IMG/VR virus record: IMGVR_UViG_3300035141_000033
Span: 2,401-66,400 of that record
Reading direction: 5' to 3' (one strand)
From: a virus
Taxonomy: Duplodnaviria > Caudoviricetes
Length of the DNA: 64,000 nt
In this document: positions 9,893 through 43,554 of the stretch, in pieces
Layout of the letters: each line of letters starts with the position of its first letter
How positions within the stretch are numbered: position 1 is the stretch's first letter
Made by a program: the position numbers and the translations under genes
Notes under the pieces: model-generated
Told to the model about the DNA's origin: nothing
What the model saw: the letters and a program-made list of their open reading frames with translations, nothing else
Database searches by the model: none

Positions 9893-9903
9893 GAGGTTAA
9901 AAG

Positions 9904-10167: not shown

Positions 10168-10222
10168 GAGAGAAAAATGAAAAAGTATAAAATACAAATT
10201 GAATTGTTGGAATTGATCTTAA

Positions 10223-11119: not shown

Positions 11120-11131
11120 AATCTGTTTATT

Positions 11132-11633: not shown

Positions 11634-11635
11634 AA

Positions 11636-13812: not shown

Positions 13813-14423
13813 TTACTTTATTTGAAGCACAAGAAAAAATAAATCAACTAATTGGAAAACAAAAAGAAATACAAAGTAATTATTCCACCATTAAGGCGGA
13901 ATTAAAAGAACAAAAAAAACTATCTTCTGTTATAGAAGAAACTCAAGTCCTCTTACAACAAACAGCACAGGAAACTCAAAATCAATTAAGATTTCATTTA
14001 GAGGATATTATGCAAACTGGTTTAGAATTATGTTTTCCTGATATGTATACTGCTTGTGTTAGGTTTGAAAATAAAAGAGGAAAGACTGAATGTGATATCT
14101 TCTTAGAAAATAATGAAGGTTGTCGAATTAATCCAATTACTGATAATGGAGGTGGAGTTGTTGATATACTTTCTTTTTCTTTAAGGATGGCTTGTTGGGC
14201 TATTAGTAGCACGGATAATCTTATTATATTAGATGAACCATTTAAATTTTTATCTATTGAATTGAGACCTTTAGCTGGTGAATTATTACAAACATTATCA
14301 GAAAAATTAAAATTACAAATTATTATGATTACTCACGATGAGGACATGAAAGAAATTGCTGATAAAACTTTTATAGTGAAAAAGAATATTAAAACGGAAA
14401 AATCTAATATTTTTTTAAAATAA
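13809..14423 (+). CDS. SbcC/Rad50-like ATPase, C-terminal half
   Basis: Degenerate ABC signature NGGGVVD, Walker B ILDEP, H-loop MITHD. Confidence 0.88.
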   Translation: MITLFEAQEKINQLIGKQKEIQSNYSTIKAELKEQKKLSSVIEETQVLLQQTAQETQNQLRFHLEDIMQTGLELCFPDMYTACVRFENKRGKTECDIFLENNEGCRINPITDNGGGVVDILSFSLRMACWAISSTDNLIILDEPFKFLSIELRPLAGELLQTLSEKLKLQIIMITHDEDMKEIADKTFIVKKNIKTEKSNIFLK

Positions 14424-14429
14424 TCCAAT

Positions 14430-14532
14430 AAATCAGTATTTTTTTTAAAAAATTACTTGACTTTTTATTCCTTTATTATTATATTTAAATTAATAAATAA
14501 TAAATAATAAGTAATAAAGGAGTAACAAAATG
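14430..14532 (+). promoter_or_regulatory. class A promoter/RBS cassette
   Basis: TTGACT at 14457, 17-bp spacer, TATATT at 14480; AAGGAGTAACAAAATG. Confidence 0.85.
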
Positions 14533-14910
14533 ACAACATTAAAAGAAGATGTGAAAAAAATATTGGATAAAGTTGATTGGATAAGTATCCATTCAGAATA
14601 TGTTTTTGGAAATTATAATGATACGATAAATATATTTGATGATGGAACTTATGAAGTTTTAAGTTCAAATACAACTTATCAAAGTTATGAAAGAGTGATT
14701 GGAATTATTCAAATTCAAGGATTTGGTAATATTGACTATTTTGATTACCTGGACGGATGGGGAGAATGGAATGAAGAAAAGGAAATATTTATAACTAACG
14801 ATGGTCGTGAATTAACTCGAGAAGCAGCAATTCAAGAATGCATAGAAGACGGTGACTGGTCTTCTTATATCGAAGAATGGAAAAGAGAAATATTGGAAGA
14901 TGTTTGTTAG
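14530..14910 (+). CDS. hypothetical protein (early region)
   Basis: Acidic 126-aa ORF with strong RBS. Confidence 0.8.
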   Translation: MTTLKEDVKKILDKVDWISIHSEYVFGNYNDTINIFDDGTYEVLSSNTTYQSYERVIGIIQIQGFGNIDYFDYLDGWGEWNEEKEIFITNDGRELTREAAIQECIEDGDWSSYIEEWKREILEDVC

Positions 14911-15020
14911 ATATTTAGATTTTATAGAATTTGAAAATTTCATGAAAGAAAATAATGTGGAATGGGTTAAATATGCCAAAAATATAAGAGCTATGAAGAA
15001 ATAATATTGAATTTAATAAT

Positions 15021-15041
15021 TAAGCCCCCTCTCGGGGCTTA
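15021..15041. other. GC-rich hairpin (TAAGCCCC-N5-GGGGCTTA)
   Basis: 8-bp perfect inverted repeat in an intergenic region. Confidence 0.55.
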
Positions 15042-15071
15042 AAAAAGGAAATAATAAAGGAGTGTAACAGA

Positions 15072-15674
15072 ATGAAAAAAGAAGATGTGAAAAAAATAAA
15101 GTTAAGAAATTATGCTGATTATTTTGATACAGAGAAGAAGGAAGAGCAGGTTTATGAAATACCATCGTCTTTCTTTGAAAAAAGTGGTATTTATAAAGAA
15201 AAAAACGAAGAGTTTTTTTCTATCGTAAAGAATGAAAATTGTTTTTTCATTCCAAATGATGAAGATGAAGAGAATCTGTACTATGCACTCATGGCTGCGC
15301 AAAGAGCAGATGGAACTTGGAATTATATTCCTTTTCCAATTTTTGTAGAGGCTTTAAATGTGCCTTTGCTTGCAGATTATAGCTCTACGCAACTCACTTA
15401 TATTTTTAGTGGTTCCGAAATTCTTAATAAATGGGAATATCTGGAAGATATAATAACAGAAGAGCCAATAGATGAAACTAAATCTTCAAATGGGGGGGAT
15501 TACTATAGTGGATATAGAATAGAATACAATGAGCAGCGCTCATTGTATAGAGTAAGCTTTAATCATCTGCTCTATTCTGATTTTGCTTATCAAGGTTGGA
15601 CAGACTATGAATATATGAATGACCAGGAGTACTTAAACTGGAGAGCTGAGGTAATAAATGAATTAACTGAATGA
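15072..15674 (+). CDS. hypothetical protein
   Basis: 200-aa ORF; RBS block AATAATAAAGGAGTGTAACAGAATGAAAAA shared with the 15782 ORF. Confidence 0.8.
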   Translation: MKKEDVKKIKLRNYADYFDTEKKEEQVYEIPSSFFEKSGIYKEKNEEFFSIVKNENCFFIPNDEDEENLYYALMAAQRADGTWNYIPFPIFVEALNVPLLADYSSTQLTYIFSGSEILNKWEYLEDIITEEPIDETKSSNGGDYYSGYRIEYNEQRSLYRVSFNHLLYSDFAYQGWTDYEYMNDQEYLNWRAEVINELTE

Positions 15675-15781
15675 ACGATTTTTAACAATTTTGAAACGCC
15701 TTCGGGCGTCCGTCGGATGGTGGTTGAGCCAGAATTTTTTAATTACAGGATACAAAATAAATAATAAAGGAGTGTAACAGA

Positions 15782-16018
15782 ATGAAAAACAAAGAAAGAT
15801 GTATGGCAGAAGATTTATTGTCAAAGAAAAATTTTGAAGTTTTGTTAGAAGCTGTGCTAGATGTAAGATGGATTTCTGAGACTTATGAGAAAAAGTGGAT
15901 ATATGTTTCTTCTGTTGAACAACTTAAAAATGGACATATTTTATTTATGTCAAATGAAAGTTATGTGACATATATTGTGCCTAAGGGTGTTTTGGTTTTG
16001 TGTAAAGGTTTAAACTAA
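15782..16018 (+). CDS. hypothetical protein
   Basis: 78-aa ORF with the duplicated RBS block. Confidence 0.75.
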   Translation: MKNKERCMAEDLLSKKNFEVLLEAVLDVRWISETYEKKWIYVSSVEQLKNGHILFMSNESYVTYIVPKGVLVLCKGLN

Positions 16019-16067
16019 AATTGTGATTTAATATTTTCGTTATGATAAAATATTAAAAGGAGGTAAA

Positions 16068-16120
16068 TTAGATATTCCATTCTTTGTCTCGTGCGGATAT
16101 TTGCACGAGGGAATATCTAA
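16068..16120. ncRNA. bulged stem-loop in an intergenic region
   Basis: TTAGATATTCC/GGAATATCTAA (11 bp) plus CTCGTGC/GCACGAG (7 bp). Confidence 0.4.
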
Positions 16121-16208
16121 AAAATAAAGATGTACTGTTGCTTAATTGCACTAGTATAAAGCGAAAAAAAGGTAACTGATTTTAATAATACTTTATAAAA
16201 GGAGACAT

Positions 16209-16730
16209 ATGATGAAAAAATTAATATTGATATTACTTTTTTTAACAAATTGCATAGGGCAAAACGATGATTTTACAAACGAAACAATACAAGATCCTCC
16301 AGTAGATCCTACATCACCTTATGCTACATTGCAATCAGTTCCAATTATAACAGATTGTTCTATAGAAAATATCTGGGCTGAATATTTTACATTTACTTTG
16401 GATTTTTCTGAAACTGTAATCAATGAACCAGTATATGATAATTATTATTTAGGTGATATTTATGGAGATTATTTTATATTTGATGACCCTTCCAAATTTA
16501 ACGATCCATATAATATAGAAAATGATCCAATTAAATCAGGAGGATTTTTATTTGATTCTACAGACAAGACAGTTTCTCCAAATGTACCTAATGAGTATTT
16601 GGGGCAAACTGTTTATGTAGGTTTTGTTTTAAGATCTAGTATAAATGAAATTAGGGAAGGTGAAATTATTGGTTTGGGTAGAATTCCCTATAGTGAATGG
16701 TCCGTAATATATGAATGGAAGGTGGAGTAA
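16209..16730 (+). CDS. putative lipoprotein
   Basis: Signal peptide MMKKLILILLFLTNC ending in Cys, followed by a Pro/Asp/Thr-rich tether. Confidence 0.65.
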   Translation: MMKKLILILLFLTNCIGQNDDFTNETIQDPPVDPTSPYATLQSVPIITDCSIENIWAEYFTFTLDFSETVINEPVYDNYYLGDIYGDYFIFDDPSKFNDPYNIENDPIKSGGFLFDSTDKTVSPNVPNEYLGQTVYVGFVLRSSINEIREGEIIGLGRIPYSEWSVIYEWKVE

Positions 16731-16849
16731 TGAAAAAATTAGATAAACTTATTTTGGAATAGATTTAAATAAAGAACAAATATATATATATTTCGTGATG
16801 ATATAAAAACAAGAAAAACAAGAAAAAAAAGAACTATTGGAGGAATAAA

Positions 16850-17542
16850 ATGGGAAGAGAACTAAAAAGAGTTCCACTTGATTTTAAATGGCCACTTAAA
16901 CAAGTTTGGAAAGGTTATATTATTCCATATAGAAATCAAAAATGTAAAGCGTGTGATGGTACTGGATTAAATAAAGAAACTAAAAAATTATATGATGACT
17001 GGTATTCGTTTGATAAAGTAGAATATATAGAATTTGAAAATGGCAGACGTTATAATAATTTAGCTTGGTGTAATCATATTACGGAAGTAGAAGTGAAAGC
17101 ACTAGTAGAAGAAGGTAGATTAAAAGATTTTGATAATCCTACACCAAAAGAAGTCAATGAATGGAATAGAAAAAAAAGGCGAGGTCATGATGCTATAAAT
17201 CGTTGGATTTGTGTAAAAGCTAGAGCAAAACATTTAGGGGTTTATGGTCATTGTGACTATTGTAACGGTGAAGGTATTTTTTGGCATAATGATGAAATAA
17301 AAAAGTTAGCTGATGTATGGGAATCTTATGACCCCCCTGAAGGTGAAGGTTTTCAATTATGGGAAACTACATCTGAAGGAAGTCCTTCCTCTCCAGTTTT
17401 TAAAACATTAGAAGAATTATGCGAATGGTGTGAAAAAAACGCAACTGTAGTTGGCATAAAAAAGGTTACAAAAGAGAAATGGTTGGAAATGTTAAGCGAG
17501 GATTTTGTTGTATATAAAGAAGGGAATGTTCTTTTTTTATAA
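16850..17542 (+). CDS. conserved phage hypothetical protein with DnaJ-like Cys motifs
   Basis: CKACDGTG, CDYCNGEG and PPEGEGFQLWETTSEGSP. Confidence 0.75.
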   Translation: MGRELKRVPLDFKWPLKQVWKGYIIPYRNQKCKACDGTGLNKETKKLYDDWYSFDKVEYIEFENGRRYNNLAWCNHITEVEVKALVEEGRLKDFDNPTPKEVNEWNRKKRRGHDAINRWICVKARAKHLGVYGHCDYCNGEGIFWHNDEIKKLADVWESYDPPEGEGFQLWETTSEGSPSSPVFKTLEELCEWCEKNATVVGIKKVTKEKWLEMLSEDFVVYKEGNVLFL

Positions 17543-19224: not shown

Positions 19225-19438
19225 TTTCTTTTACTTCCGTGTTTTTTTCTTTTACTTCCGTGTTAATTGCCGTAAGTATAGATTCAGTTACTCTTTTATA
19301 CCGATCTATTGTTAAATATTGTCCAGTAACATTCCCGTTGTTAATGTCAATTAATAGATTATTTAAAATTCCTATTACTTGATTGGTACAATTTTCACTT
19401 AAAATAATTTGTTTTTCCTTATTTTGCATATTTTGCAT
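19205..19438 (-). CDS. hypothetical protein after the tail fibre
   Basis: 77-aa ORF containing a 21-bp-period duplication (NTEVKEK). Confidence 0.6.
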   Translation of the reverse strand: MQNMQNKEKQIILSENCTNQVIGILNNLLIDINNGNVTGQYLTIDRYKRVTESILTAINTEVKEKNTEVKENGTDNN

Positions 19439-20840
19439 ATTTTATCTCCAATTTATTAATTTTATTATTTAATTCTTTAAAAGCTTCAGTAAGTAAAGCA
19501 GTTACTCTACCGTAGAACATTGTATGGTCTTTTCCATCTGCTGTTAATCCTGTAGCTTCAGGAATTATTTTAAAAACATCATCTGCAATAAATCCAATTT
19601 CTGTTTTTTCGCTTCTTTTATCTTTCCAATCAAAATACACGCCTTGCAGTTGAGTTACAATGTCAAGCGCGTTTTTAATTGGTTTTATATTTTCTTTTAA
19701 TTTTCTCGCTGAACTTATATAAAATCCTGATCCAGCGGTGTGATATACGTCACCAGTGCCGAGTCCAGTTATTTCCACTAATCCATTTTTTTTAATATGA
19801 AATCTAGGCGACCATGATATAGTATTCCCAGCTGTTCCAGATACCGCATTCCATCCAATAATTTGTCCATCTGTTAAAGTTAATAAAGAAGCAACATCAG
19901 TTGAAATATATTTCCACGTACTAGTTGAATTAAAATAACCATTAACTACGAGTCCAAACTTAGCACCAGCACCCTTTGTTGTTGAGCTGTATAATGTTGC
20001 ATTTCCACCCACTTTCAATGTTGAAAAAGTTGAAATCCAACTTTCTAAATTAGCGCATCCAACGCCTGCGTCATTTGATCCATTTATTATAAGTCTTGTC
20101 GTTCCGCCTGTGACAAGCTCTAATTTATCTGTACCATCCTGTCCGATTCCTGTGTCAGCATCACCTAACGCAAAAAATGGACCAGATGTTACAGTGTTAT
20201 CTATTTCTTTATCAGTAATTAAACCAGCGTTTCCTTCTTTTGATATTTGAAAAAATTCAGTATTTGCAATTCCGAAACGCATATCACTCGTTTCATAATT
20301 CCATAAAACAGCTTTTTCATTTTCATCAATTCCAATGTGAAAACCATTATTTTCAGATGACTCAGTATCAGAATTTGTAAAAGCAATTTGAACAGCATCA
20401 CTACTTTCATCATGAAGATGTAATTTTGTTAAAGGTGAATTTATACCGATACCTACATCTCCATTATTGTCTATAACTGCACGTTGTGCATTATTTGTCC
20501 AAAAATCTAAATTTGAATTTACTTGGTTTTTTAAAGAAACACTTTCATCAGCATTTAAACCAATTATAAAACCATTGTTTGATGCAGTTCCTGTAGTTGT
20601 ATTAGTGAATTGAGCTCTTGCTGCACTTGAACTGGTTTCATGTACATGTAATAATTCTGTTACTGCTCCAATATTTATTCCTAAATCATTTGTCACATTC
20701 ACATCAGTATTTATATATGTTTTCAATAAACTCATGGCAACTTGATAATCTCTATCAGAAGCAATACCCGCCATTAACCAAAGTACATCTGTGTCGTTTA
20801 TACTACTTGCTACTGGAAAATCTATTGGGGAAATTGACAT
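19419..20840 (-). CDS. tail fibre with C-terminal intramolecular chaperone (peptidase S74-like)
   Basis: GDVGIG repeats; SARKLKENIKPI...GVYFDWK...IGFIA; C-terminal coiled coil. Confidence 0.85.
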   Translation of the reverse strand: MSISPIDFPVASSINDTDVLWLMAGIASDRDYQVAMSLLKTYINTDVNVTNDLGINIGAVTELLHVHETSSSAARAQFTNTTTGTASNNGFIIGLNADESVSLKNQVNSNLDFWTNNAQRAVIDNNGDVGIGINSPLTKLHLHDESSDAVQIAFTNSDTESSENNGFHIGIDENEKAVLWNYETSDMRFGIANTEFFQISKEGNAGLITDKEIDNTVTSGPFFALGDADTGIGQDGTDKLELVTGGTTRLIINGSNDAGVGCANLESWISTFSTLKVGGNATLYSSTTKGAGAKFGLVVNGYFNSTSTWKYISTDVASLLTLTDGQIIGWNAVSGTAGNTISWSPRFHIKKNGLVEITGLGTGDVYHTAGSGFYISSARKLKENIKPIKNALDIVTQLQGVYFDWKDKRSEKTEIGFIADDVFKIIPEATGLTADGKDHTMFYGRVTALLTEAFKELNNKINKLEIKYAKYAK

Positions 20841-31797: not shown

Positions 31798-32421
31798 TTA
31801 AAAACTCAAATCTCCTGATGAAGTTCCTTCTTTTGCCCAAGCCCAAAATGCTATATTGTCATTTGTTGCTTCAGCTGGATTATAAGGCCATGTTGGATTA
31901 GTGATTAAAGGTGTTTCATCTATTTGAGCAGTTCCTTTAAATGGAACACTGGAATAATCATCTCCTCCAAGAATAACTTCAAAATCTTCCGATGTAATTT
32001 GTAAACGCCTAATATACAATCTTAATTCTCTAGCATTTACATTTTGCCCAATCAAAACACATGAAGGAAAAACAGGAGATGGTACATCTGAACCTATAAT
32101 AACCCTATTAAAGTTTTCATCTGTATCATCATATTTTCTTTGAGTAACTAACGCTATTGTTTCTGGTTGTAATTGTTTTAATGTCGCTTCAATTTCAAAG
32201 GTCTGATCAATAACATCACGTCTTACTTCAGATTTTGGAATACCAGTTTTGAAGACTGCATATTCTACTGTTTGTCTCCATGTTTTTTCAGCTTCTAAAT
32301 ACCCTAGAGATAAAAAACCATTTCCATCATGAAAATCCACATATAAAGCTGGATCATATAGAAAAAATAAATCACTATTTCTTCCATAATTACTTGTTGT
32401 AATATTTAAATTATTTGGCAT
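31798..32421 (-). CDS. major tail (tube) protein
   Basis: 207 aa, beta-rich (SLGYLE, FEIEATLKQLQPETIAL); canonical position. Confidence 0.65.
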   Translation of the reverse strand: MPNNLNITTSNYGRNSDLFFLYDPALYVDFHDGNGFLSLGYLEAEKTWRQTVEYAVFKTGIPKSEVRRDVIDQTFEIEATLKQLQPETIALVTQRKYDDTDENFNRVIIGSDVPSPVFPSCVLIGQNVNARELRLYIRRLQITSEDFEVILGGDDYSSVPFKGTAQIDETPLITNPTWPYNPAEATNDNIAFWAWAKEGTSSGDLSF

Positions 32422-32731
32422 TTTTTAACACCTCCTCTAAAAATTCTTCAGGTTTAACACCCTTATCATTTATATAATAATCTCCTACTGGTTTTCCACA
32501 TACTAATGTAGTATATTTCACACCATATTCGGATAATTGTTTTTTTGTTTTTTCTAACAAGAGCCAATGCCTTGCGGTATAAATAATTATTGTATTTCCT
32601 TCGTCATACAATTTATTTATTGCATTAATTAGGTCTTCATTTATATCTACTATTCCATAATCAGTATAATTTACCATTGGAACAGGTTCGGTTATAAAAA
32701 TAGTATCATCTATATCAACAACATATCTCAT
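32411..32731 (-). CDS. HAD-family phosphatase (capsule-biosynthesis type)
   Basis: VDIDDTI, IYTAR, GKP and INDK HAD motifs. Confidence 0.85.
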   Translation of the reverse strand: MRYVVDIDDTIFITEPVPMVNYTDYGIVDINEDLINAINKLYDEGNTIIIYTARHWLLLEKTKKQLSEYGVKYTTLVCGKPVGDYYINDKGVKPEEFLEEVLKNAK

Positions 32732-33555
32732 TTTCTAAGAACCTTCCTTTTTTCAATTTCTGAATTAAAAACTTTACGCTCTTCATACCCTGAATTTAAA
32801 GCTTTTTCTATATCTCTAATTCCTTTAACTAATTTAAATAAACCAACTGGTTCAACAGAACTAGATTGATCAGAACCCCACATACTTCTGTTTAATGTTA
32901 TATGTTTCTCAATCCAAGTTACCCCTGCTCCTGCTGCTGCAAAAGTAGTTGCTAAACCAAATTCATGTGAACTAAAACCTATCTGTTTTGTCGGATATTT
33001 TTCTTGTAACCATTTTATATATCCAAAATTTAATTCATTTACATCAGTTGGGTAACTAGAATTACAATGCATTATCACATCAGGATTCCCTACTTTTATT
33101 GCTTGTTCAATCTCTTCTTCGGTACTCATTCCAGTACTAATTAAAATCTTAGGATAAAAAGCACGACAACATTCCAATAATTTTAAATCAGTAATTAACG
33201 CACTAGGTATTTTTACCATGTTTGTAAAAAACCTCATTTCATCTGCACTATCTATATCCCATACGGAAGGGAACCATTTAATACCTGCTTCAGAGCAATA
33301 ATCATCTATCTTATCATATTCTTCACAAGTAAATTCAATTCTATGTTTATATTCTAAATAAGTGACTTCAGTTCCATCTTCTAAAATTTTAATTTTATTT
33401 TTTTGATCTTCTGGAACACAAATATCAGGATTTCTTTTTTGGAATTTTACATAATCAAATCCTGCAAGTGCTGCTACATTTATTAATTTCCTTGCAACAT
33501 TTAAATCACCATTATGGTTAATCCCTATTTCAGCTATTAAATTTATTTTATGCAT
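32728..33555 (-). CDS. neuB: NeuB/SpsE-family nonulosonate synthase (short, no C-terminal SAF domain)
   Basis: IAEIGINHNGD, VKFQKR, KIPSA, ISTGMS, MHCNSSYP, GFSSHE and IEKHITL. Confidence 0.92.
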   Translation of the reverse strand: MHKINLIAEIGINHNGDLNVARKLINVAALAGFDYVKFQKRNPDICVPEDQKNKIKILEDGTEVTYLEYKHRIEFTCEEYDKIDDYCSEAGIKWFPSVWDIDSADEMRFFTNMVKIPSALITDLKLLECCRAFYPKILISTGMSTEEEIEQAIKVGNPDVIMHCNSSYPTDVNELNFGYIKWLQEKYPTKQIGFSSHEFGLATTFAAAGAGVTWIEKHITLNRSMWGSDQSSSVEPVGLFKLVKGIRDIEKALNSGYEERKVFNSEIEKRKVLRK

Positions 33556-33557
33556 AT

Positions 33558-33782
33558 TTATAACTCCTTAATATTCCAAATATATATATATTCATCATTA
33601 TTAGGTAAATCAGGAAACTGTTTAAATAAAGAAATATGTTCTCCAAAATTAAATGGAGGTTTTTGTAATTTGCGTAAATACAATTCATTCCATTGTTCTT
33701 CTAAGGTTAAGTCTTTTACTTTATTATACCATGCTTTTTCCATAAATAATCTCCTATTTTTGTATAACCTTTCCAGATACAA
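33558..33782 (-). CDS. hypothetical protein
   Basis: 74-aa ORF coupled within the glycosylation operon. Confidence 0.5.
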   Translation of the reverse strand: MYLERLYKNRRLFMEKAWYNKVKDLTLEEQWNELYLRKLQKPPFNFGEHISLFKQFPDLPNNDEYIYIWNIKEL

Positions 33783-34485
33783 TATTTTTCATTAATTCAT
33801 ATATAAAATCATCAGTTTTTAAATTATCATATTTTTTAAATAAATCGTAAATATATTTTGTATTTTCTAATATATTATGTCCATCTTCTGTTTTACCTTT
33901 ATTTATTATATTTCCCTGTCTTCTAATTTTATCAGGTAAATACCCATCTAAATATTCGCTATAATCATCATGTTTAAATACTTTATTTTTACTAATAAAA
34001 AAATCAATTCCAGTGAGATATAATTCTTTTGGATTTGCTTTTATTAAATCAGTTATAATAAAAGCACCCATTAAAGCACCATATACCTGAGAATGTACGT
34101 CTTTTATAACACGACGTAAAGATCTAACATTAATATATTTGGAATAAGTCTCGTCATCTTTTTTATCTAATGTTTTCATACATAACCATTTAACACCTTT
34201 TTTAACAAAAGTTTTACAAGGAAAAGGTCTCATTTCCCTAGCAAATTGAACGTTGGTATATAAAACATCAATACGTCTTCCATAATCTTTATAATATTTG
34301 TCTTTATCAAAAAACACAGAACCATTGGTTTTAACAACAATATCAAAATTATCTATTTCTTTCCCTTTACCCATTCCTTGAATATTAGGACATGCTCCAA
34401 CAAAACAAACTCGTTTCCCTTTAATATACTCTTTAAAAAAATTATCCACTGATTGACCCCATTTATTTAATTCTTTTAAACTCAT
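33754..34485 (-). CDS. GT29 (sialyltransferase)-like glycosyltransferase
   Basis: RVCFVG..P.....GKGKEIDNFDIVVKTN...YG.RIDV resembles sialylmotif L; ELYLTGIDFF and H resemble motifs S/VS. Confidence 0.65.
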   Translation of the reverse strand: MSLKELNKWGQSVDNFFKEYIKGKRVCFVGACPNIQGMGKGKEIDNFDIVVKTNGSVFFDKDKYYKDYGRRIDVLYTNVQFAREMRPFPCKTFVKKGVKWLCMKTLDKKDDETYSKYINVRSLRRVIKDVHSQVYGALMGAFIITDLIKANPKELYLTGIDFFISKNKVFKHDDYSEYLDGYLPDKIRRQGNIINKGKTEDGHNILENTKYIYDLFKKYDNLKTDDFIYELMKNIVSGKVIQK

Positions 34486-34895
34486 TTAATTAACCTATAT
34501 ATTTTATTTTCTAAAGTATTAATTATTCTATGTATCTCATCATCTACTTCCCTAGATGAAACATATATTTCTTTTTGATTAGCAAAATCACGCATTCTAG
34601 TTAATAATAATTCTAAGATTTCATGAAAACATGTTTTAGATATATCATCTTTTGTTATATCAGATTCTATCCATTTTTTACCATAAGTAATGGTTGCCCT
34701 AAAACCACACCCAACACCTTGCTCATAAAAAGGGTTGGTCCAACAGGAAGCTTCATATTTATCAGTTTCATATTGTTTTATAGATAAATCCCAAAAATGC
34801 AATCCAAAAAAATCATAAAATCGTTTTACCTCCGATTCAAAATATTTTATTTTTTCAATTTTAGTCATCATTTCTCCAAATATATATATATCCAA
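34482..34895 (-). CDS. hypothetical protein, zincin-like HEXXE motif
   Basis: CFHEILE in a 137-aa ORF. Confidence 0.55.
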   Translation of the reverse strand: MDIYIFGEMMTKIEKIKYFESEVKRFYDFFGLHFWDLSIKQYETDKYEASCWTNPFYEQGVGCGFRATITYGKKWIESDITKDDISKTCFHEILELLLTRMRDFANQKEIYVSSREVDDEIHRIINTLENKIYRLIK

Positions 34896-35488
34896 TTTTC
34901 ATCTGCTAAAAATAACCAATCTTTAATATTTTTAGTTTTAACAAAATCAATAAATATTCTTTTCCATTCTTTAACAGATTTTAAATTACAATGAACTTTA
35001 TTATTGCCTTTCTTTTTCTGATCTCTTTTAATTTCATGTATAGCAATGGTCATATAAATATATTTATTAGAAACTCGATATATTTCATCCATTACATCTT
35101 TTTCTAATTCAACAAGAATATGTTCCATTCCATCCTGATGAATTACAACATCAAAAGAATTATCTTTAAAAGGCATTTTATCAGCACTACAACAATGAGT
35201 TATAATTTCTTTGGTAACATGCTTTAAAGCTTCTTTAGAAATATCAATTCCTGTTCCTTCAATATGTTTATAATTATTTTTAAAAAAGTCTATCATAAAA
35301 CCTTTACCACAACCAATATCTAATAAAGTTTTAGAATTTAACAATGCTTGTTTTATTCGCATATGTAATTTATCATTTGCTTTTTTAAATGCTTTTGCTC
35401 TGCCAGTTTTTCCTCCATATTTAAGTTCCTCTTTATGAAGTTTATTATATTTAGCTCGTTCTTTCTTTAGTAATTCATTTTTATTCAT
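34868..35488 (-). CDS. class I SAM-dependent methyltransferase
   Basis: LLDIGCGKG, GIDIS, MPFKDNSFDVV and MEHI. Confidence 0.88.
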   Translation of the reverse strand: MNKNELLKKERAKYNKLHKEELKYGGKTGRAKAFKKANDKLHMRIKQALLNSKTLLDIGCGKGFMIDFFKNNYKHIEGTGIDISKEALKHVTKEIITHCCSADKMPFKDNSFDVVIHQDGMEHILVELEKDVMDEIYRVSNKYIYMTIAIHEIKRDQKKKGNNKVHCNLKSVKEWKRIFIDFVKTKNIKDWLFLADENWIYIYLEK

Positions 35489-36966
35489 TACGGTTTCTCC
35501 ATAATAGTTTTTCTTTCTGAAGGATCAGATTTCAATATAGCAGTATCGGTATAAAAAGAATCGCCTCTTATATGTGTTGTGCTGATTTCTTCAAATATAA
35601 CCCCTTCTATCGTTGTGAAACTATGTTTTCTATATCTTTCAACTAGAAATAAATCACCTTTTTTTAATTCATAAGTTTTTCCTTCAACTATCAATTTCAT
35701 ATCACCCCATAATATTTGGAATGTTTCTTCTTTATTTTTATGAAAATGTTCAGGATGTTCTTGTTTAGGTGATTGAATTATTAGTTTTTTACAATATTCT
35801 CTATTAATTAAATCAATTATAATAGCGCCGTATTCTTTAAATTTATCAAATCCATAATGATGTGATAATTGTATTTCATAAGTTTTTCCTATATCAATAC
35901 CTGCTTCAGTAAGCATTCCTTTAACTTTATGAATATATCTTCTTGCTTGATCAATTTTATTTTCTTGTATAATTTTTTCACATACAGCACTATCCTTTTG
36001 ATAATCTTTTGTAGCAATTGTGGTAACTCTGTATCTATTAAAATCACCACTTGTTGTTTGATTAACAAAACAAGGCATTGCATAATATACATCTTCTTTT
36101 CTTATAATTTCGCCATTTTTAATTTCTTTATTAACATATACGCCTCTTTGTAATCCTCTAATATTTTCTCTTTCTTCCACCAAAATTGGTTTTTGAGCAC
36201 AACCACATATTTCAAAAGCATTAAGAATAGACTCAACCCATGGTTTAGCATCATTTGGACTTATAGAATAAGAATTTAAATTTTCTATTCCAATATGTCT
36301 TTCAAACATCACAGCTCCTTTAGCAACAGCAATTGCAGAAACAAACCAATTTGTTGCTTTTTCATGTCCAGAATAACCTATATCTACATCCACATACCTC
36401 TTTTTCATTTTATCAATAAAATTCATATGAAGATATTCGTTTTCAGTTGGGTATAAAGAAACACAATGAAATAAAGAAAAAGGAATATCTTTATGTTTAA
36501 AAAAACTAACCACACTATCAATTTCTTCTATTGCATGTCCGCCAGTTGAAATTATAAGCTCTTTATTAGTTTTAGAAATCCTATCCAATAAACTCCAATC
36601 AGTCATGGAACACGAAGCTACTTTAATAAAATCTACATTTGCTTTTTCACACAAGGTAACGGAATTTTCATCAAAGGGAGTTGCACCAACTAATAAATCC
36701 TTATTTCTTGCATAATCGGCTAACATTAAAAATACATCTTTAGATAGCTTAGTTGATTCAAATCTTTTAATATGTTTAATCTTTTCATTGCCTCTATAAT
36801 CTTTATGTATAAAAGTTTCAAGATCTCTATATTGGAATTTTATAGCACTTAAAATACTATATTTTTCAGATATTTCAGACACCATATCAATTATCTGTTT
36901 AGCAAAATCAACTTTACCATTATGATTATTTGCCATTTCCCAAATGAATAAAGGTTCAGTTCTCAT
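35488..36966 (-). CDS. neuB: NeuB-family synthase with SAF domain and C-terminal cupin
   Basis: EMANNHNG, IKFQYR, TPFDE, KVASC, ISTGG, HCVSLYP, GYSGHE, FERH; C-terminal HPEHFHKNKEETF...RKHSF cupin. Confidence 0.9.
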   Translation of the reverse strand: MRTEPLFIWEMANNHNGKVDFAKQIIDMVSEISEKYSILSAIKFQYRDLETFIHKDYRGNEKIKHIKRFESTKLSKDVFLMLADYARNKDLLVGATPFDENSVTLCEKANVDFIKVASCSMTDWSLLDRISKTNKELIISTGGHAIEEIDSVVSFFKHKDIPFSLFHCVSLYPTENEYLHMNFIDKMKKRYVDVDIGYSGHEKATNWFVSAIAVAKGAVMFERHIGIENLNSYSISPNDAKPWVESILNAFEICGCAQKPILVEERENIRGLQRGVYVNKEIKNGEIIRKEDVYYAMPCFVNQTTSGDFNRYRVTTIATKDYQKDSAVCEKIIQENKIDQARRYIHKVKGMLTEAGIDIGKTYEIQLSHHYGFDKFKEYGAIIIDLINREYCKKLIIQSPKQEHPEHFHKNKEETFQILWGDMKLIVEGKTYELKKGDLFLVERYRKHSFTTIEGVIFEEISTTHIRGDSFYTDTAILKSDPSERKTIMEKP

Positions 36967-38039
36967 AAATTCAAACTCCTATTTAATTCTTTAATTCTAA
37001 GTTCATACCTACAAATTTTAACAGGAGTAAGCTCATTAACTCCTAAATAATTATGATGAATATAAAAATAAATAGACTTTCCTTCTCTAACAATTCCATT
37101 TATTGCTTGTTCTTGATTTTTTGGTTTTTTATTTAACAATGAAACTTTCTTTTTAAATATTTCATCAGTTACTTCCCAATTTATACCATCATAGGATTTC
37201 ATAATCTTAATACAACCATTTCCTCCTTTTTCAGGAAAGAAGGGAACCATTCCAATAAATAATTTATCATTATCAGGATGTTTCATAAATACCGGAGAAT
37301 AATAATTATCACTTTCTGGATCATGCCCATCAACATTTATAGATTTAAATTCAGACCAGTTAATTAAATCTTTAGAGGTTGCATACTGTACAAACCTTAT
37401 ACCCCATCTTATATTTTTTCTTACCCATAAAATATAACGTTTTATTTGACTATCATATAAACATGTCAAATGCCCATCAAACTCTGTGGATTTTCCCCAT
37501 TCCAGAGCTGACCAGAATCCCGGATGTTTAGGTAAAATTGCTTTTATAATAGGTTCTTTTTCAACCAAATCCCATTTTATACCATCTTTAGATTTTAATA
37601 AATACAGGCCGTCAACATGATTTAAAGTTCCTTTTGCTAATAGTTTTTCTCTAGTTCCTTCCCATCTTACAGAATCTTTTATATAAGGTGTATTAAATCT
37701 TTCAAGGAAAGCTTTTTTAAACTCTTCAAAATCTGTAATATCACGCCATCGTTGTTGATGTTTCCAGCTGTCAACACCACCTATTGCAAATAAACATTTT
37801 TTATCTTTATCATGAAACGGATAAAAATTATGAGATATTCCACTTCCCTTAATAACAAGTTTAGGTTTTAAATTAAAAGTTTTTCCATTATCATGGCTTT
37901 CATAAAAAATAGTTTGGTTTTTTCTATTCCATTCATTAACATACATCCGGACTATACCATCAAGACATTTTATAACAGAATGATAGAGAACTGTTCTATT
38001 TTCAGCTTTGTATATAATATTTTCTTTTACAAAATTCAT
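36963..38039 (-). CDS. Asp-box beta-propeller glycoside hydrolase (sialidase or GH32/43-like)
   Basis: Four Asp-box-like motifs: SHDNGKTF, SKDGIKW, SKDLINW, SYDGINW. Confidence 0.6.
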   Translation of the reverse strand: MNFVKENIIYKAENRTVLYHSVIKCLDGIVRMYVNEWNRKNQTIFYESHDNGKTFNLKPKLVIKGSGISHNFYPFHDKDKKCLFAIGGVDSWKHQQRWRDITDFEEFKKAFLERFNTPYIKDSVRWEGTREKLLAKGTLNHVDGLYLLKSKDGIKWDLVEKEPIIKAILPKHPGFWSALEWGKSTEFDGHLTCLYDSQIKRYILWVRKNIRWGIRFVQYATSKDLINWSEFKSINVDGHDPESDNYYSPVFMKHPDNDKLFIGMVPFFPEKGGNGCIKIMKSYDGINWEVTDEIFKKKVSLLNKKPKNQEQAINGIVREGKSIYFYIHHNYLGVNELTPVKICRYELRIKELNRSLNL

Positions 38040-38041
38040 TT

Positions 38042-38656
38042 TTACCTCTTAAATATTAAAAAGCCATCATTATTTTTAAATAATAATGTTAAACCATAAC
38101 TTATAAATTTTTTAATCCAACTATTTATTGACATTACAGTTAAATGTAAATTTTTAATTTTTGGAAAATCTTCTCTATAAAATTCTTTTGCTTTTTGTAA
38201 ATGAGAAATATTCCCTTCTACATGATCACAAACTTTTATAAAAAATAAATTTTTACAAACTCTTATCATTTCTTTAATGCCTTTATCTAAATCATCAGGA
38301 TGTAAATGCTCAAACATATCACATGTGAAAATAGAATCAAAAAATTTATCTTTAAAAGGTATATCTAAAATACTGCCCTCTACACAATTTATAATTCCAA
38401 AAACATCACATGCATATCTAATCGCAATTTTAGAAACATCTATTCCAAAACCACTTTTACCATTTTTTTGAAAAACCTGTAAAGCTAAACCATTACTACA
38501 TCCTATTTCAAGAACACTATTAAATTCATTCCGATATTTTTTTACTGCCTTAGTTGCATAGTCAACACCATGATTTTTTGCTTTATCGTGATACCCTATT
38601 TGATACAACTTATCATATATATTATAATAATCTACACTCATAATTTTATTAACCAA
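38042..38656 (-). CDS. class I SAM-dependent methyltransferase
   Basis: VLEIGCSNG, GIDVS, IPFKDKFFDSI and DMFEHL. Confidence 0.88.
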   Translation of the reverse strand: MVNKIMSVDYYNIYDKLYQIGYHDKAKNHGVDYATKAVKKYRNEFNSVLEIGCSNGLALQVFQKNGKSGFGIDVSKIAIRYACDVFGIINCVEGSILDIPFKDKFFDSIFTCDMFEHLHPDDLDKGIKEMIRVCKNLFFIKVCDHVEGNISHLQKAKEFYREDFPKIKNLHLTVMSINSWIKKFISYGLTLLFKNNDGFLIFKR

Positions 38657-39171
38657 CTTGTATCCCTAAATATAAAATCAGGTTTTTTAAATTCATCAAC
38701 AGCAGGCTGCACTCCTGGATGATGTTTGTTTTTATAATCATGTCCTCCAATAAAACCACCTTTTTTAATTTTTGGTAACCATAATTCAATGTCTTCTTTT
38801 ACACCTTCACAAGTATGTAATCCATCAATGTACACAAAATCTAAAGAATTATCATCAAACAACTTGACTGCCTTCTTGCTGGACATTTTATTCTTAATAA
38901 TATTACCTTGTTTTATAGCAAGTTCCTCAAATTGAGACTCAACAATAGACATTGGTGTTTGAAAACTTGCAGCATCTTTGTCATCATATCCATTTTCCCA
39001 CGGATCTACAGCATAAACAACTTCAAAATTATTTGAAAATATTTCAGTTGAATCACCAACATAGCAACCTATTTCAACCATTCGTTTTCGTTGTTCTTTT
39101 GGTATTTTGTTAATCAAATCTTGCAATCCTATTTTTGCAAACTTAGCATTTCTAATAGAAATTTTATTCAT
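38638..39171 (-). CDS. class I SAM-dependent methyltransferase (Methyltransf_24-like)
   Basis: VEIGCYVG, AVDPW, FVYIDGLH and GGFIGGHDY. Confidence 0.85.
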   Translation of the reverse strand: MNKISIRNAKFAKIGLQDLINKIPKEQRKRMVEIGCYVGDSTEIFSNNFEVVYAVDPWENGYDDKDAASFQTPMSIVESQFEELAIKQGNIIKNKMSSKKAVKLFDDNSLDFVYIDGLHTCEGVKEDIELWLPKIKKGGFIGGHDYKNKHHPGVQPAVDEFKKPDFIFRDTSWLIKL

Positions 39172-39284
39172 AATGATTTTCCTTTATTTTCTTTTCTAAT
39201 TTTATAATCTAAATAAACAAAAACAATCAAACCAAACATTAATACAAAACTATTAGCTATTATTAAATCTATAAAGCCTTTCAT
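39168..39284 (-). CDS. small single-TM protein (38 aa, not in ORF track)
   Basis: MKGFIDLIIANSFVLMFGLIVFVYLDYKIRKENKGKSL; AGGA RBS; ATGA overlap with the next gene. Confidence 0.45.
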   Translation of the reverse strand: MKGFIDLIIANSFVLMFGLIVFVYLDYKIRKENKGKSL

Positions 39285-39331
39285 TATTAAATTCCTTTTC
39301 TTTTATTATTTATCATTATAAATATATCCTT

Positions 39332-40072
39332 TCATTTTTTATAATACCATTCCCACCAGATTTTTTCTAATTCTTCATAACCCTTTTCATTTTTAGAAAT
39401 TCTATTATGCTCTTGCCATGGCTTTAATCCTACATAATGAATAATTGCAGGATTATTAATAATATGTTTATATCGTTTGGTACCTAACATCCTTTTTTCT
39501 ACATTATACCTTTTATTAACATAATCGTATTTATTATAAAAATACAAATTCATGGTCTTCTGTTCTGGCATGGAATAACCTACTTGTGCTAATTGAACTA
39601 AAGTATTGTACGTTTGTTTATTTAGATATTCTGAACCAACAATAAATAATCCAGAATTTATTTGATTACCTAATCTATCTTTTCGTCTATTATAACCTTT
39701 TACACCAGTAATACCATTACTTGTTTTATAAAATAAATCTTTTAAATTATCCAATACCACCATATCCACATCTATAGAAAGAATTTTATCATATTCATAT
39801 AAAGAAAAGACATCTAAAAAATAATAAGTATTTCTTAATTTTGGATGAGTGGCATTAAAATTTACATCTTTATATTTATCATAATTAGGTTTTCTAAAAA
39901 TTACCTTATTGTACATTTTTTTACATGCATTTTTTATATTAGGAGACAAACCCAAATCCAAAATCACAAAATCCAAATCAAACCATTTGTTATGATATAA
40001 AAAAGATTTCATAAAAGTACGAAAACCAATATAAAAATCATCAGATAGTATTGTGAACATTGCTATTTTCAT
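39332..40072 (-). CDS. GT8-family glycosyltransferase
   Basis: SIDVDMVV (DxD), INSGLF, EQKTMN, YNV and IIHYVG.KPW. Confidence 0.88.
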   Translation of the reverse strand: MKIAMFTILSDDFYIGFRTFMKSFLYHNKWFDLDFVILDLGLSPNIKNACKKMYNKVIFRKPNYDKYKDVNFNATHPKLRNTYYFLDVFSLYEYDKILSIDVDMVVLDNLKDLFYKTSNGITGVKGYNRRKDRLGNQINSGLFIVGSEYLNKQTYNTLVQLAQVGYSMPEQKTMNLYFYNKYDYVNKRYNVEKRMLGTKRYKHIINNPAIIHYVGLKPWQEHNRISKNEKGYEELEKIWWEWYYKK

Positions 40073-40704
40073 ATTTGATTATTCTCCAAATCTTTTTTAT
40101 AATCCACATCAATAGGTTTTTCAATTGGAAAAAATATTGTGTTTTCATTATAGAGATTTTTATTTAAATTTTTTAATTCATCAACATAAGAAATAAAAAC
40201 ATAATGACTAATCATAAAAACTTTTTTGTAATCTTGTCTTCTATACAAATTATGCTGAAATATTTGACTACCTTTATTATCTTTTTCTTCATACATCATT
40301 AAATAAGGAGTTTCATCAGTTTCATATTTACATAACAAACTTTTTGCATGAGATAAGGTGAAAAAAGAATATACTTTTGAAATATCACTCCAAGTTCTAA
40401 ATGGATAAGTTAAGTATAATAAAATAATAATATCTTTTTTATTAATATCAAATTGATTTACCACATCTAATAAAACATCTTTGGTGGAAGCATGATCATC
40501 TGCTAATTTATCATCTCTACACAAAACATTATAGCCGCATTGCATTGCTTCTTCCATAATAATTTCATCATCTGTAGAAACAATTACATTCTTCATACCC
40601 ATAGGAATGCTATCAAAGGTACAATTCATTAATTTCTGATTCTTTAAAGGAAAACCTTTACTACCTTTGCGTGCCGGAATAACGAAATAAATATTATTTT
40701 TCAT
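40069..40704 (-). CDS. neuA: CMP-nonulosonate synthetase (acylneuraminate cytidylyltransferase)
   Basis: IPARKGSKG..KN, VSTDD, R...LADD, L..T.PFR and IDVDY..DL. Confidence 0.9.
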   Translation of the reverse strand: MKNNIYFVIPARKGSKGFPLKNQKLMNCTFDSIPMGMKNVIVSTDDEIIMEEAMQCGYNVLCRDDKLADDHASTKDVLLDVVNQFDINKKDIIILLYLTYPFRTWSDISKVYSFFTLSHAKSLLCKYETDETPYLMMYEEKDNKGSQIFQHNLYRRQDYKKVFMISHYVFISYVDELKNLNKNLYNENTIFFPIEKPIDVDYKKDLENNQI

Positions 40705-41500
40705 TTAATACCTCTTTTATATCTCTATAATCAAAAGTAGAAATTCGACTTATTGAACTGCAATTAAATACTCTATTTTTATATTGTTTAAATTTTTCAA
40801 AATGCACAACACATTTATTCATTTTTCTTTCATCATATTTTTTATTTTTAGTAAAGTCATCTTTAAAAAAATAATTTTCTTTTTCTGGATTTAAATCAAA
40901 TCCAAGTAAAAATATTCTTTTAGCGTTCATAATTATACCTAAATTTAATCCAGCTAATCCAGCCAATTCTCCACAAAATAAACCCATCACTATATCGTTT
41001 TGTGGTTTAATCCTGTGAATTGGAAAAGTATAAAATTTATTTTTTGTACCAATTGAAGGAGCGTACCCTGTTCTATAAGAAGCAAAAATAATACCTTTAA
41101 ATTTGTCAATATCATCCTTGCATTCAGTAACAAATTTTTTATCTAAAAATAATAAATAATCTGCATCAGAATAATAACGTAAACTATGATTTAAGACCAT
41201 AGTTTTTTTATTTTTTAATTTATTAAAATCAAAACCTTTTAAACTTGGACCGCTCCCTATAATAAACAAATCTTGGTTTTGTAACAAATTTTTTATCTCT
41301 TTAGTTTTATACACTTTTAACCTCTTCATTGTAGTAGCTGTCTGTTCAGTAGGTAAAAAAACTTCAGTATTTTGAATCAATTCAATACATTTCTGCAAAG
41401 GTAATTTAACGGGTTTATTTCCTTCTACCCTTATATGTTTTCCTTTAAAAAAAACATCATAAGGTTTATCTCCTTGATATGTTACTTCTCCATATTGCAT
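40694..41500 (-). CDS. Maf/DUF115-like glycosyltransferase (candidate nonulosonate transferase) with extra N-terminal domain
   Basis: FIIGSGPSL, LN, A..LGI.M.AKRIFLLGFD and FNCS motifs. Confidence 0.7.
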   Translation of the reverse strand: MQYGEVTYQGDKPYDVFFKGKHIRVEGNKPVKLPLQKCIELIQNTEVFLPTEQTATTMKRLKVYKTKEIKNLLQNQDLFIIGSGPSLKGFDFNKLKNKKTMVLNHSLRYYSDADYLLFLDKKFVTECKDDIDKFKGIIFASYRTGYAPSIGTKNKFYTFPIHRIKPQNDIVMGLFCGELAGLAGLNLGIIMNAKRIFLLGFDLNPEKENYFFKDDFTKNKKYDERKMNKCVVHFEKFKQYKNRVFNCSSISRISTFDYRDIKEVLNEK

Positions 41501-41697
41501 TATAAATCCTGTATATCTACCGTTTCTGTATCAATATAAGTTCCATTATGCGGAAATGTAGCATCACCAAGTCTCATATCTTTTTGTTACACCACACTGC
41601 CTAGAAATTCTGCATTTCCACTTGCAACTTATATATCATCACCATCAAATGTATAATTGCTTTCATCATCAAAAGGATATGTAATTGTTAAACTCAT
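41500..41697 (-). pseudogene. 66-codon frame with two internal TAA stops, coupled to both neighbours
   Basis: MSLTITYPFDDESNYTFDGDDI*VASGNAEFLGSVV*QKDMRLGDATFPHNGTYIDTETVDIQDL*. Confidence 0.5.
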
Positions 41698-43522: not shown

Positions 43523-43554
43523 TTTACTTTACGTCTTTTTAGACGTAAAGTAAA
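43523..43554. terminator. 14-bp perfect hairpin downstream of the major capsid gene
   Basis: TTTACTTTACGTCT-TTTT-AGACGTAAAGTAAA. Confidence 0.6.

Follow-up and report, generated by a model that had tools for sequence, protein, structure and literature searches.

A modular, putative virion-glycosylation island with nonulosonic acid synthesis genes in the tail module of an IMG/VR phage genome

We describe a cluster of nonulosonic acid (sialic-like acid) synthesis and glycosyltransferase genes embedded among the virion genes of a tailed phage, and propose, with a probability of about 0.6, that it is a modular island for virion glycosylation whose transcription is shared with the late structural genes. 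The cluster lies in a 64,000-nucleotide stretch of DNA (the window; GC ~28%) spanning bases 2401-66400 of IMG/VR virus record IMGVR_UViG_3300035141_000033, a 66,400-bp genome with direct terminal repeats and a CheckV completeness of 100%. Functional assignments throughout rest on sequence and predicted structure. The island occupies positions 32411-41500 of the window on the minus strand and holds 13 open reading frames (ORF) plus one ORF of 38 amino acids (aa), encoding two NeuB-type synthases (NeuB1 and NeuB2), a HAD phosphatase, a NeuA-like synthetase, three transferases (Maf/Cst-II-like, GT29-like and GT8), three methyltransferases and a propeller protein. ORF reading combined with Pfam, PHROG and NCBIfam profile searches bears out, coordinate by coordinate, the gene inventory put forward in an earlier reading based on the DNA letters alone (the sequence-only reading). 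The tight coupling noted there is also evident: most genes overlap or abut, with junctions of -29 to +2 nt, the two exceptions being a 197-nt gap directly after a 158-aa terminator gene and a 160-nt gap housing the 38-aa hydrophobic ORF. No minus-strand terminator-like site is predicted within the cluster, the only strong hairpin of the region following the capsid gene, and no transmembrane segments were found in the island enzymes.

Foldseek and ESM Atlas comparisons support the claimed placement of this cluster between a tail terminator and the major tail gene. An AlphaFold2 model of the 207-aa protein, built from 23 homologues (predicted local distance difference test, pLDDT, 85.2), returns siphophage tail tubes as top Foldseek matches, with E from 9e-9 to 1e-5 [9N71 from Acinetobacter phage Mystique (E 9e-9), 8ZDJ_S from mycobacteriophage Douge, 9JGH and 6XGR (YSD1)], confirming through its modelled structure that this protein is a siphophage tail tube. 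The gene for the 158-aa protein comes after a Neck1/tail-completion gene (phrog_26), its homologues border the slot in relatives, and the ESM Atlas neighbours of the protein, in both features and structure, are the tail-terminator clusters PF23840, PF06141 and PF23818 (TM 0.72-0.79), supporting its predicted role as tail terminator. The start of the tube gene overlaps the HAD gene by 11 nt.

The island thus sits within a single-strand late operon of 32 kb, a structural and lysis block that runs continuously on the minus strand from ~50.5 kb down to 18.3 kb. Its order is small terminase, large terminase, Mu-type portal, protease, scaffold, major head protein (phrog_1005), Neck1/tail-completion protein, 158-aa protein, glycosylation cluster, 207-aa protein, 235-aa protein, tape measure, beta-helix protein, 2269-aa protein, fibre with Peptidase_S74 and amidase. 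Genes for DNA polymerase A, helicases and RecA, along with 7-deazaguanine genes, lie elsewhere in the genome, and a search of the genome for a tyrosine integrase found none. Because the genome is complete with terminal repeats, carries the cluster in a late operon, has replication genes and lacks a tyrosine integrase, it is that of a phage, probably a virulent one, and not a host island; the sequence-only reading's own objection, that the cluster might be a host-derived island, is therefore not upheld.

Relatives were sought with the tube protein in IMG/VR, Joint Genome Institute (JGI) metagenomes and GTDB genomes, and the window proteins were mapped onto the loci obtained. In all of the ~20 distinct relatives (capsid 51-63% and tube 53-73% identical to those of the window) the same slot is bounded by the terminator and tube genes, so that the check proposed in the sequence-only reading, a search of other phages for the cluster and its insertion point, gives a positive result. 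What varies is the content. The slot is empty in one locus (L035:9893-10001, identical in sequence to L051), where terminator and tube lie 108 bp apart. It holds a methyltransferase and a Maf-like gene in L021, and a tandem double Maf-like gene (488-515 aa) in L019, L029, L036 and L053, accompanied by one methyltransferase, at most one small unannotated ORF and no sugar-synthesis genes, so that these islands would depend on host CMP-nonulosonate (CMP, cytidine monophosphate). Larger sets comprise Maf, NeuA, NeuB and HAD (L018); Maf, a divergent NeuB and HAD (L038, L054, L055); Maf, NeuA, GT8, methyltransferase, NeuB and HAD (L030, L037); Maf, GT8, methyltransferase, GT29-like and NeuB (L017, L027); and near-full sets resembling that of the window (L031, L048, L049, L014), to which L014 adds two sulfotransferases. 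The L016 island additionally carries PGA_cap, radical SAM and GT2 genes. Throughout this variation, the Maf-like gene stands at the terminator end wherever the slot is fully covered and occupied, opening the island or having no more than a methyltransferase or small-ORF gene ahead of it, and NeuB-HAD, when present, adjoins the tube gene.

The same cassette occurs in a second phage lineage. Three loci (L003, L004 and L006) share a collinear core of Maf, NeuA, GT8, methyltransferases, (propeller), GT29-like, NeuB and HAD, whose products are 35-62% identical to the window proteins; in L006, whose capsid belongs to another family (phrog_247), the core is flanked by the genes for the head-tail adaptor and the Hc1 head-closure protein. 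A search for further members of this lineage returned distant matches only. In a NeuB tree, the second-lineage sequences and one from a 425-kb phage nest within the clade of the window lineage (support 97/89). Because of this nesting, the sequences indicate that the cassette has been exchanged between unrelated phages, yet it is still found among virion genes.

A candidate acceptor is encoded at the edge of the island. In the tube family a conserved aromatic motif is followed by a short C-terminal tail; the last nine residues are GTSSGDLSF in the window, and residues 203-207 are disordered in the model (pLDDT below 50). The tail contains Ser or Thr in 67 of the 68 tube homologues with the anchor motif, most commonly four or five such residues; the single exception (P0076), which ends in VEQQ, comes from the 14,550-bp contig with the empty slot (L035). 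Tail type also tracks island type, with SFSSTS in 4/4 tandem-Maf islands, an association confounded by relatedness. For mycobacteriophages, capsid and tail-tube subunits are reported to bear glycans on their C-terminal ends (Freeman 2023, cited through PMC12619734). The short disordered C-terminal tail of the tube is the most likely glycan acceptor.

The sugar to be attached would be produced by a truncated pathway. Both synthases clear the PF03102 gathering cut-off of 22.1 bits by a wide margin (NeuB1 201.9, NeuB2 144.4) and were refound in a whole-genome search. They fall below the equivalog levels of the Neu5Ac (N-acetylneuraminic acid) synthase family TIGR03569 (206 and 153 bits; cut-off 399.65) and of the pseudaminic acid synthase family TIGR03586 (134 and 135 bits; cut-off 340.25). 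The NeuB1 alignment stops at TIGR03569 position 278/329, leaving out the SAF (antifreeze-like) domain, and its best match in the PDB is 6NCS, a short NeuB of 290 aa; since such short NeuBs have been solved, the SAF domain is not obligatory. NeuB2 aligns with TIGR03569 positions 3-328/329, SAF-like region included, is closest in the PDB to 3G8R (E 3.6e-69), and ends in a Cupin_2 domain with a readable HxHxxxE metal motif. This cupin resembles mannose-6-phosphate and D-lyxose/D-mannose isomerases, a similarity that suggests a fused isomerase supplying the second synthase. The NeuA-like protein scores 36.7 bits against PF02348 (cut-off 22.6) and shows a readable N-terminal IPARxGSKG motif; among the NCBIfam models PseF matches best, with 62.8 bits against an equivalog cut-off of 205.7. 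The HAD protein has a readable DxDxT motif and no cap domain, matches the capsule-biosynthesis phosphatase family TIGR01689 (E 4.5e-6), and is nearest to PNKP and EcbF-type phosphatases.

In nearly all islands NeuB1 is directly followed by HAD, an arrangement that suggests a phosphorylated NeuB product. Phosphorylated nonulosonate intermediates are those of the KDN-9-phosphate (KDN, ketodeoxynonulosonic acid) and Neu5Ac-9-phosphate routes (PMC6200933, PMC8208679). By analogy, the most economical guess is that NeuB1 converts mannose-6-phosphate to KDN-9-phosphate, with N-acetylmannosamine-6-phosphate (ManNAc-6-phosphate) as the alternative substrate, and the gene order leads us to propose the HAD protein as a nonulosonate-9-phosphate phosphatase. 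The complete genome contains no NeuC (UDP-N-acetylglucosamine 2-epimerase), no PseC/LegC (DegT-type aminotransferase) and no PseB/LegB-type dehydratase; the phage would therefore supply condensation, dephosphorylation and activation only, and the sugar precursor must come from the host.

As initiating transferase we propose the 268-aa Maf-like protein, which matches PF01973 with 27.2 bits (E 3.9e-6; cut-off 34.6) and phrog_4603 with E 3.5e-19, and to which the precomputed annotation of the collection also assigns PF01973. A profile of eleven phage Maf-like proteins matches Cst-II (GT42; 77-258 against 2-220, E 1e-3), with which they have in common an N-terminal G-x-G-P/S-S-L nucleotide-binding motif and a central LLG-x-D segment. 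Full-length Mafs are much longer, their catalytic core being flanked on both the N- and the C-terminal side by large domains that bind the substrate; the phage protein lacks large flanking domains and has only a lineage-specific N-terminal extension of 75 aa. The smallest islands (L019, L021) encode no other transferase, and on this ground it is proposed to transfer a CMP-nonulosonate onto protein Ser/Thr. The GT8 protein is well supported (PF01501 55.2 bits; cut-off 24.3) and has a readable DVD (DxD) motif.

The GT29-like protein scores 21.4 bits against PF00777 (cut-off 23). Its ESM Atlas neighbours are 29 clusters of mainly viral origin; in the three top-listed ones 65-73% of members carry PF00777, and one further nearby cluster consists of GT29+GT8 fusions. 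With a profile of ten GT29-like proteins, the seven best PDB matches are all animal GT29 sialyltransferases (E 1e-3 to 2e-2), and the alignment to ST6Gal1, ST8Sia3 and ST3Gal1 covers sialylmotif L; an invariant G-H pair near the C-terminus may correspond to sialylmotif VS. In one relative, a single 445-aa protein (L016:2966-4303) fuses NeuA (PF02348) to a GT29-like domain that exceeds the cut-off (30.8 bits), a fusion that ties this domain to CMP-sugars and leads us to propose it as a second CMP-sugar-using transferase. Of the profile checks suggested by the sequence-only reading, those for PF03102, PF02348 and GT8 thus come out above the cut-offs, and those for PF01973 and, in the window protein, GT29 (PF00777) below.

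Under the favoured explanation, NeuB1 would condense phosphoenolpyruvate with a host sugar phosphate (mannose-6-phosphate, giving KDN-9-phosphate, or ManNAc-6-phosphate), the coupled HAD phosphatase would take off the 9-phosphate, and the NeuA-like enzyme would form the CMP-sugar. The Maf/Cst-II-like enzyme would then put the sugar onto Ser/Thr in the cytoplasm, likeliest on the C-terminal tail of the adjoining tube protein, after which GT8 could add a hexose and the GT29-like enzyme a second CMP-sugar-dependent residue; the three methyltransferases would decorate the glycan, and the propeller and NeuB2-SAF-cupin proteins might extend or vary it. The probable benefit would be a tail shielded or retargeted by an acidic coat of variable make-up. 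We infer which sugar is used, how the glycan is ordered (including its being capped by a nonulosonate), the sequence of the steps, the acceptor and the benefit. The claim that the phage makes its own activated nonulosonate and builds a methylated, nonulosonate-capped virion glycan is supported: the sequence-level tests fit it, with the caveat that only the last synthesis steps are phage-encoded.

Several observations weigh against this explanation. The HAD protein is not of the KdsC/KDN-9-phosphate phosphatase type, and both the Maf-like (27.2 versus 34.6 bits) and the GT29-like (21.4 versus 23 bits) proteins of the window remain below their family cut-offs. By profile, the Maf-like family is closer to Cst-II, which acts on glycans, than to the Mafs of known structure, and for this reason transfer to protein is a step we infer. 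The link between tail and island hangs on one clear empty-slot relative (L035), the counts coming from related sequences and not being independent. Finally, the tube proteins of L003 and L006 have no Ser/Thr tail, so the acceptor in the second lineage must differ; the Maf-like proteins of that lineage, which measure 198-228 aa and are without the 75 N-terminal residues that extend those of the window lineage, fit a different acceptor there.

Other targets for these enzymes can be envisaged. The island could remodel a host surface glycan (capsule, lipopolysaccharide or lipooligosaccharide (LOS), S-layer), blocking superinfection or leaving less progeny stuck to debris: phage enzymes converting capsular pseudaminic acid in Acinetobacter have been published (PMC12053666), the best solved relative of the Maf-like profile is a LOS sialyltransferase, and GT8 enzymes are commonly LOS-directed. 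We regard this as unlikely, given that a phage with its own replication genes and no integrase is a poor candidate for lysogenic conversion, that no flippase, polymerase, polyprenyl-phosphate transferase or transmembrane enzyme was found, and that the genes belong to a late operon, shortly before lysis, and stay at a constant position amid the virion genes of two lineages that are unrelated. The transferases might instead glycosylate host flagellin or pilin. DUF115/Maf enzymes are known only as flagellin glycosyltransferases (PMC13130089, PMC7591256). A distant relative of the tube gene lies on a metagenome-assembled genome (MAG) contig of Spirochaetota, a phylum with glycosylated flagella. 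A host-protein target nonetheless seems quite improbable: the Maf-like protein, at only 268 aa, is without the large flagellin-binding domains, its 75-aa N-terminal extension belongs to the window lineage and is missing in the second one, late expression would bring little gain, and it is the Ser/Thr tail of the tube that tracks island presence.

Hypermodification of the phage's own DNA with a sugar acid, similar to the Kdo-like (3-deoxy-D-manno-octulosonic acid-like) appendages on 5-hydroxymethylcytosine, is the least credible of these targets and in our view highly improbable. Phage clusters of a HAD-like enzyme, a cytidylyltransferase and glycosyltransferases are reported to put sugar acids on cytosine derivatives (bioRxiv 10.1101/2023.12.21.572611), and the FolE, QueD and QueE genes indicate that this phage modifies its DNA. 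Against this, the whole genome has no hydroxymethylase of thymidylate-synthase type; no cytosine methyltransferase or TET/JBP appears among the matches listed (25 of 55 families), and a dedicated search of the genome for TET/JBP (Tet_JBP) gave no match, with an uninformative control. The DUF115/GT42-like, GT29-like and GT8 proteins also differ from the DNA transferases of that study, and the island belongs to the tail module, well away from the genes for DNA metabolism. The host surface and DNA targets offered as alternatives by the sequence-only reading have hence lost ground, with no export machinery, integrase or such hydroxymethylase present. Glycosylation of the virion in the cytoplasm is favoured because genes for NeuC and Pse/Leg precursor enzymes, for the hydroxymethylase, for an integrase and for export are all absent.

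A broader reading, which we advance tentatively, is that the tube-adjacent slot acts as a phage 'serotype locus', a hot spot in which cassettes are acquired, lost and traded between unrelated phages. These cassettes, from a single Maf-like gene to ~10 kb of nonulosonate synthesis, transferase, methyltransferase and sulfotransferase genes, would equip each tube subunit with an acidic glycan of variable composition at its C-terminal Ser/Thr tail. If true, such a locus would correspond in phages to the flagellin-glycosylation and O-antigen loci of bacteria. Its driver may be evasion of tail recognition, or adhesion to sialylated or sulfated matrices such as the extracellular polymeric substances of sludge.

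Comparison with known systems places the island between several of them. Like the Maf flagellin O-glycosylation islands of Campylobacter, Helicobacter, Aeromonas and Magnetospirillum, it combines a soluble NeuB-type synthase, a CMP-sugar synthetase, a DUF115/Maf protein and methyltransferases in a hypervariable locus adjoining the gene for the subunit of a helical filament or tube, with Ser/Thr acceptors that are putative here. Unlike in those islands, the phage transferase consists of a catalytic core of 200-280 aa, has no domains for flagellin binding and is by profile nearer to Cst-II; the phage island lacks the PseB/C/H/G or LegB/C/H/G precursor enzymes, it adds GT29-like and GT8 proteins and, in relatives, sulfotransferases, and its presumed acceptor is a tail tube. 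Campylobacter jejuni Cst-II (GT42; PDB 1RO7, 2WQQ), the best solved relative of the Maf-like protein, aligns over the whole catalytic domain at an E of only ~1e-3; it sialylates LOS galactose, whereas the smallest phage islands have no other transferase to build such an acceptor. With the phosphorylated KDN/Neu5Ac route (Bacteroides thetaiotaomicron; animal NANS/NANP; PMC6200933, PMC8208679) the island shares a NeuB directly coupled to HAD and CMP synthetase without NeuC, a combination whose pathway can therefore begin from a central sugar phosphate; it differs in that the HAD protein is a capless one of 106 aa, not of KdsC type, and that there is an extra NeuB-cupin fusion. The DNA glycan hypermodification clusters (bioRxiv 10.1101/2023.12.21.572611) likewise have sugar-acid activation, a HAD-like enzyme and a cytidylyltransferase; here, in contrast, no 5-hydroxymethylpyrimidine route was detected, the transferases belong to other families and the genes lie in the tail module.

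The mycobacteriophage system similarly has glycosyltransferase genes among the structural genes, and the C-terminal glycans reported for it match the Ser/Thr tail of the tube protein here, a C-terminal candidate acceptor on a major virion subunit. It differs in host phylum and phage lineage, and in being shown experimentally where ours is predicted. To our knowledge, neither a nonulosonate pathway nor Maf- or GT29-like enzymes have been reported for it. Virion glycosylation has so far been documented experimentally for a few mycobacteriophages. Our literature search found no description of nonulosonates on phage virions, nor of virion modification by enzymes of Maf or GT29 type. In a set of 50,697 deposited phage records, relatives of NeuB1 occur in three, those of the Maf-like protein are all distant and come from seven phages, jumbo or uncultured, and the GT29-like protein has none; a megablast search of the same records with 15 kb gave no match, and a capsid-based search of IMG/VR for relatives found none.

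If the proposal is true, many environmental phages would carry a variable acidic coat, with consequences for their recognition by defences, grazers and immune systems, for their adhesion to matrices rich in sialic or sulfated glycans, and for phage engineering. The island would also provide a putative compact, soluble and self-contained set (NeuB, HAD, NeuA and a 200-280 aa transferase) for making and attaching nonulosonates, and a phage branch of the otherwise mainly eukaryotic GT29 family. The candidate acceptor being a short C-terminal tag, the hypothesis is directly testable without phage culture.

Table 1. Features of the putative glycosylation island and its borders (positions in the window)
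Feature	Position	Strand	Basis or remark
Tail terminator, 158 aa	41698..42174	-	Upstream border of slot
Probable LamG-like gene relic	41605..41695	-	Weak tblastn match, interrupted by stop
Maf/Cst-II-like (DUF115/GT42 superfamily) transferase, 268 aa	40694..41500	-	PF01973, phrog_4603
Putative CMP-nonulosonate synthetase (NeuA/PseF-like), 211 aa	40069..40704	-	PF02348 (CTP_transf_3)
GT8 retaining glycosyltransferase, 246 aa	39332..40072	-	PF01501
Hydrophobic ORF, 38 aa	39168..39284	-	Read from sequence; stop overlaps next start (ATGA)
Class I S-adenosylmethionine (SAM) methyltransferase (Methyltransf_24), 177 aa	38638..39171	-	PF13578 59.4 bits
Class I SAM methyltransferase (Methyltransf_25/11), 204 aa	38042..38656	-	PF13649 55.7 bits
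Five-bladed propeller with four Asp-box-like motifs, 358 aa	36963..38039	-	AlphaFold2
NeuB2-SAF-cupin, 492 aa	35488..36966	-	PF03102 + Cupin_2
Class I SAM methyltransferase (Methyltransf_11), 206 aa	34868..35488	-	PF08241 57.6 bits
137-aa protein	34482..34895	-	No Pfam, PHROG or NCBIfam match
GT29-like (sialyltransferase-like) protein, 243 aa	33754..34485	-	PF00777 21.4 bits
74-aa ORF, probable methyltransferase relic	33558..33782	-	Similarity to L006 methyltransferase
NeuB1, short synthase without SAF, 275 aa	32728..33555	-	PF03102 201.9 bits
Minimal capless HAD phosphatase, 106 aa	32411..32731	-	phrog_1238 E 1e-24
Tail tube (major tail) protein, 207 aa	31798..32421	-	AlphaFold2 + Foldseek; downstream border
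Codons of tube Ser/Thr-rich C-terminal tail	31801..31842	-	Proposed O-glycosylation site

The remaining island proteins (Table 1) can be placed with varying precision. The 206-aa methyltransferase weakly matches the pseudaminic-acid-associated methylase family TIGR03587, and the 177-aa Methyltransf_24 protein is kept in most of the larger islands. For the protein that the sequence-only reading had called an Asp-box propeller, the propeller fold with Asp-box-like motifs stands, in a five-bladed form of GH43/GH130 type and with no specific support for a sialidase. Its AlphaFold2 model (pLDDT 93.3) gives tied VIA Z values of 20-21.5 for the GalNAc deacetylase 6N1A, GH130 mannoside phosphorylases/synthase, BT_0996 and GH43/62/32 enzymes, and profile searches add a weak match to the mannoside synthase 9EQQ (E 0.03) and weak GH43 matches in 7/18 homologues, making it a putative carbohydrate-active enzyme on the strength of its model. 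The enzymes at the top of the comparison are five-bladed, and sialidases (GH33, six-bladed) appear only lower in the Foldseek list, with root-mean-square deviations of 8-12 Å; our own search gave no match to PF22847, its precomputed label.

Among the three small ORFs listed earlier as unknowns, the 137-aa protein keeps that status, with no family match and a weak homologue directly after NeuB in L009, while the 74-aa ORF is probably a methyltransferase gene relic, its residues 14-38 being 60% identical to the N-terminus of a methyltransferase in L006. Upstream, the segment at 41605-41688 yields a tblastn match of 28 residues, half of them identical (50%), that reads through a stop (E 0.23, small database) and may, on this weak similarity, be the relic of the N-terminal/5' part of a gene like that for a 610-aa LamG-like protein of L006. 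The latter gene (L006:2718-4550), whose product has a weak LamG/ConA-like domain, is found shortly ahead of the cassette, with the capsid gene on one side and the adaptor gene on the other.

Some further features of the relatives deserve mention. The tandem Maf-like genes are located at L019:3111-4646, L029:870-2336 and L036:7025-8572. Sulfotransferase (PF03567) genes occur inside islands at L014:1330-2771 and L006:7585-8184, which suggests that the glycans of these relatives are sulfated as well as methylated. A Peptidase_M23 gene is found within the islands of L031 (1770-2204) and L048, its L035 homologue lying elsewhere (624-1037). Matching loci in bacterial MAGs derive from two Spirochaetota and one Alphaproteobacteria and have a GC content of 40-51%, versus 28% in the window. 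One of them (L059; Spirochaetota MAG contig DAIUCD010000006.1, 97360-117959, on a 218-kb contig with 51% GC) encodes a distant tube relative with 46% identity and a 65-aa insertion; it may be a prophage, giving a weak hint to the host phylum. It has no island genes within 10 kb upstream and its tube end is without Ser/Thr, and it was considered as a second empty slot. For this it counts for little, given the tube insertion and an upstream 154-aa gene not detectably related to the window terminator.

Elsewhere in the window, genes for FolE (GTP cyclohydrolase I), a QueD-like PTPS and radical SAM proteins, in the region 25-2490 and in a plus-strand block at 9377-17542, point to 7-deazaguanine modification of DNA; UDG-superfamily and pyrimidine-dimer glycosylase genes are likewise encoded in these regions. 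The tail fibre (19419-20840) carries a C-terminal Peptidase_S74 intramolecular chaperone domain of the endosialidase-chaperone type, and the adjoining 2269-aa tail protein has an fn3 domain. Directly 3' of the major head gene, the hairpin at 43523-43554, with a perfect 14-bp stem and T/A-rich flanks, may be an attenuator tuning the ratio of capsid to tail expression.

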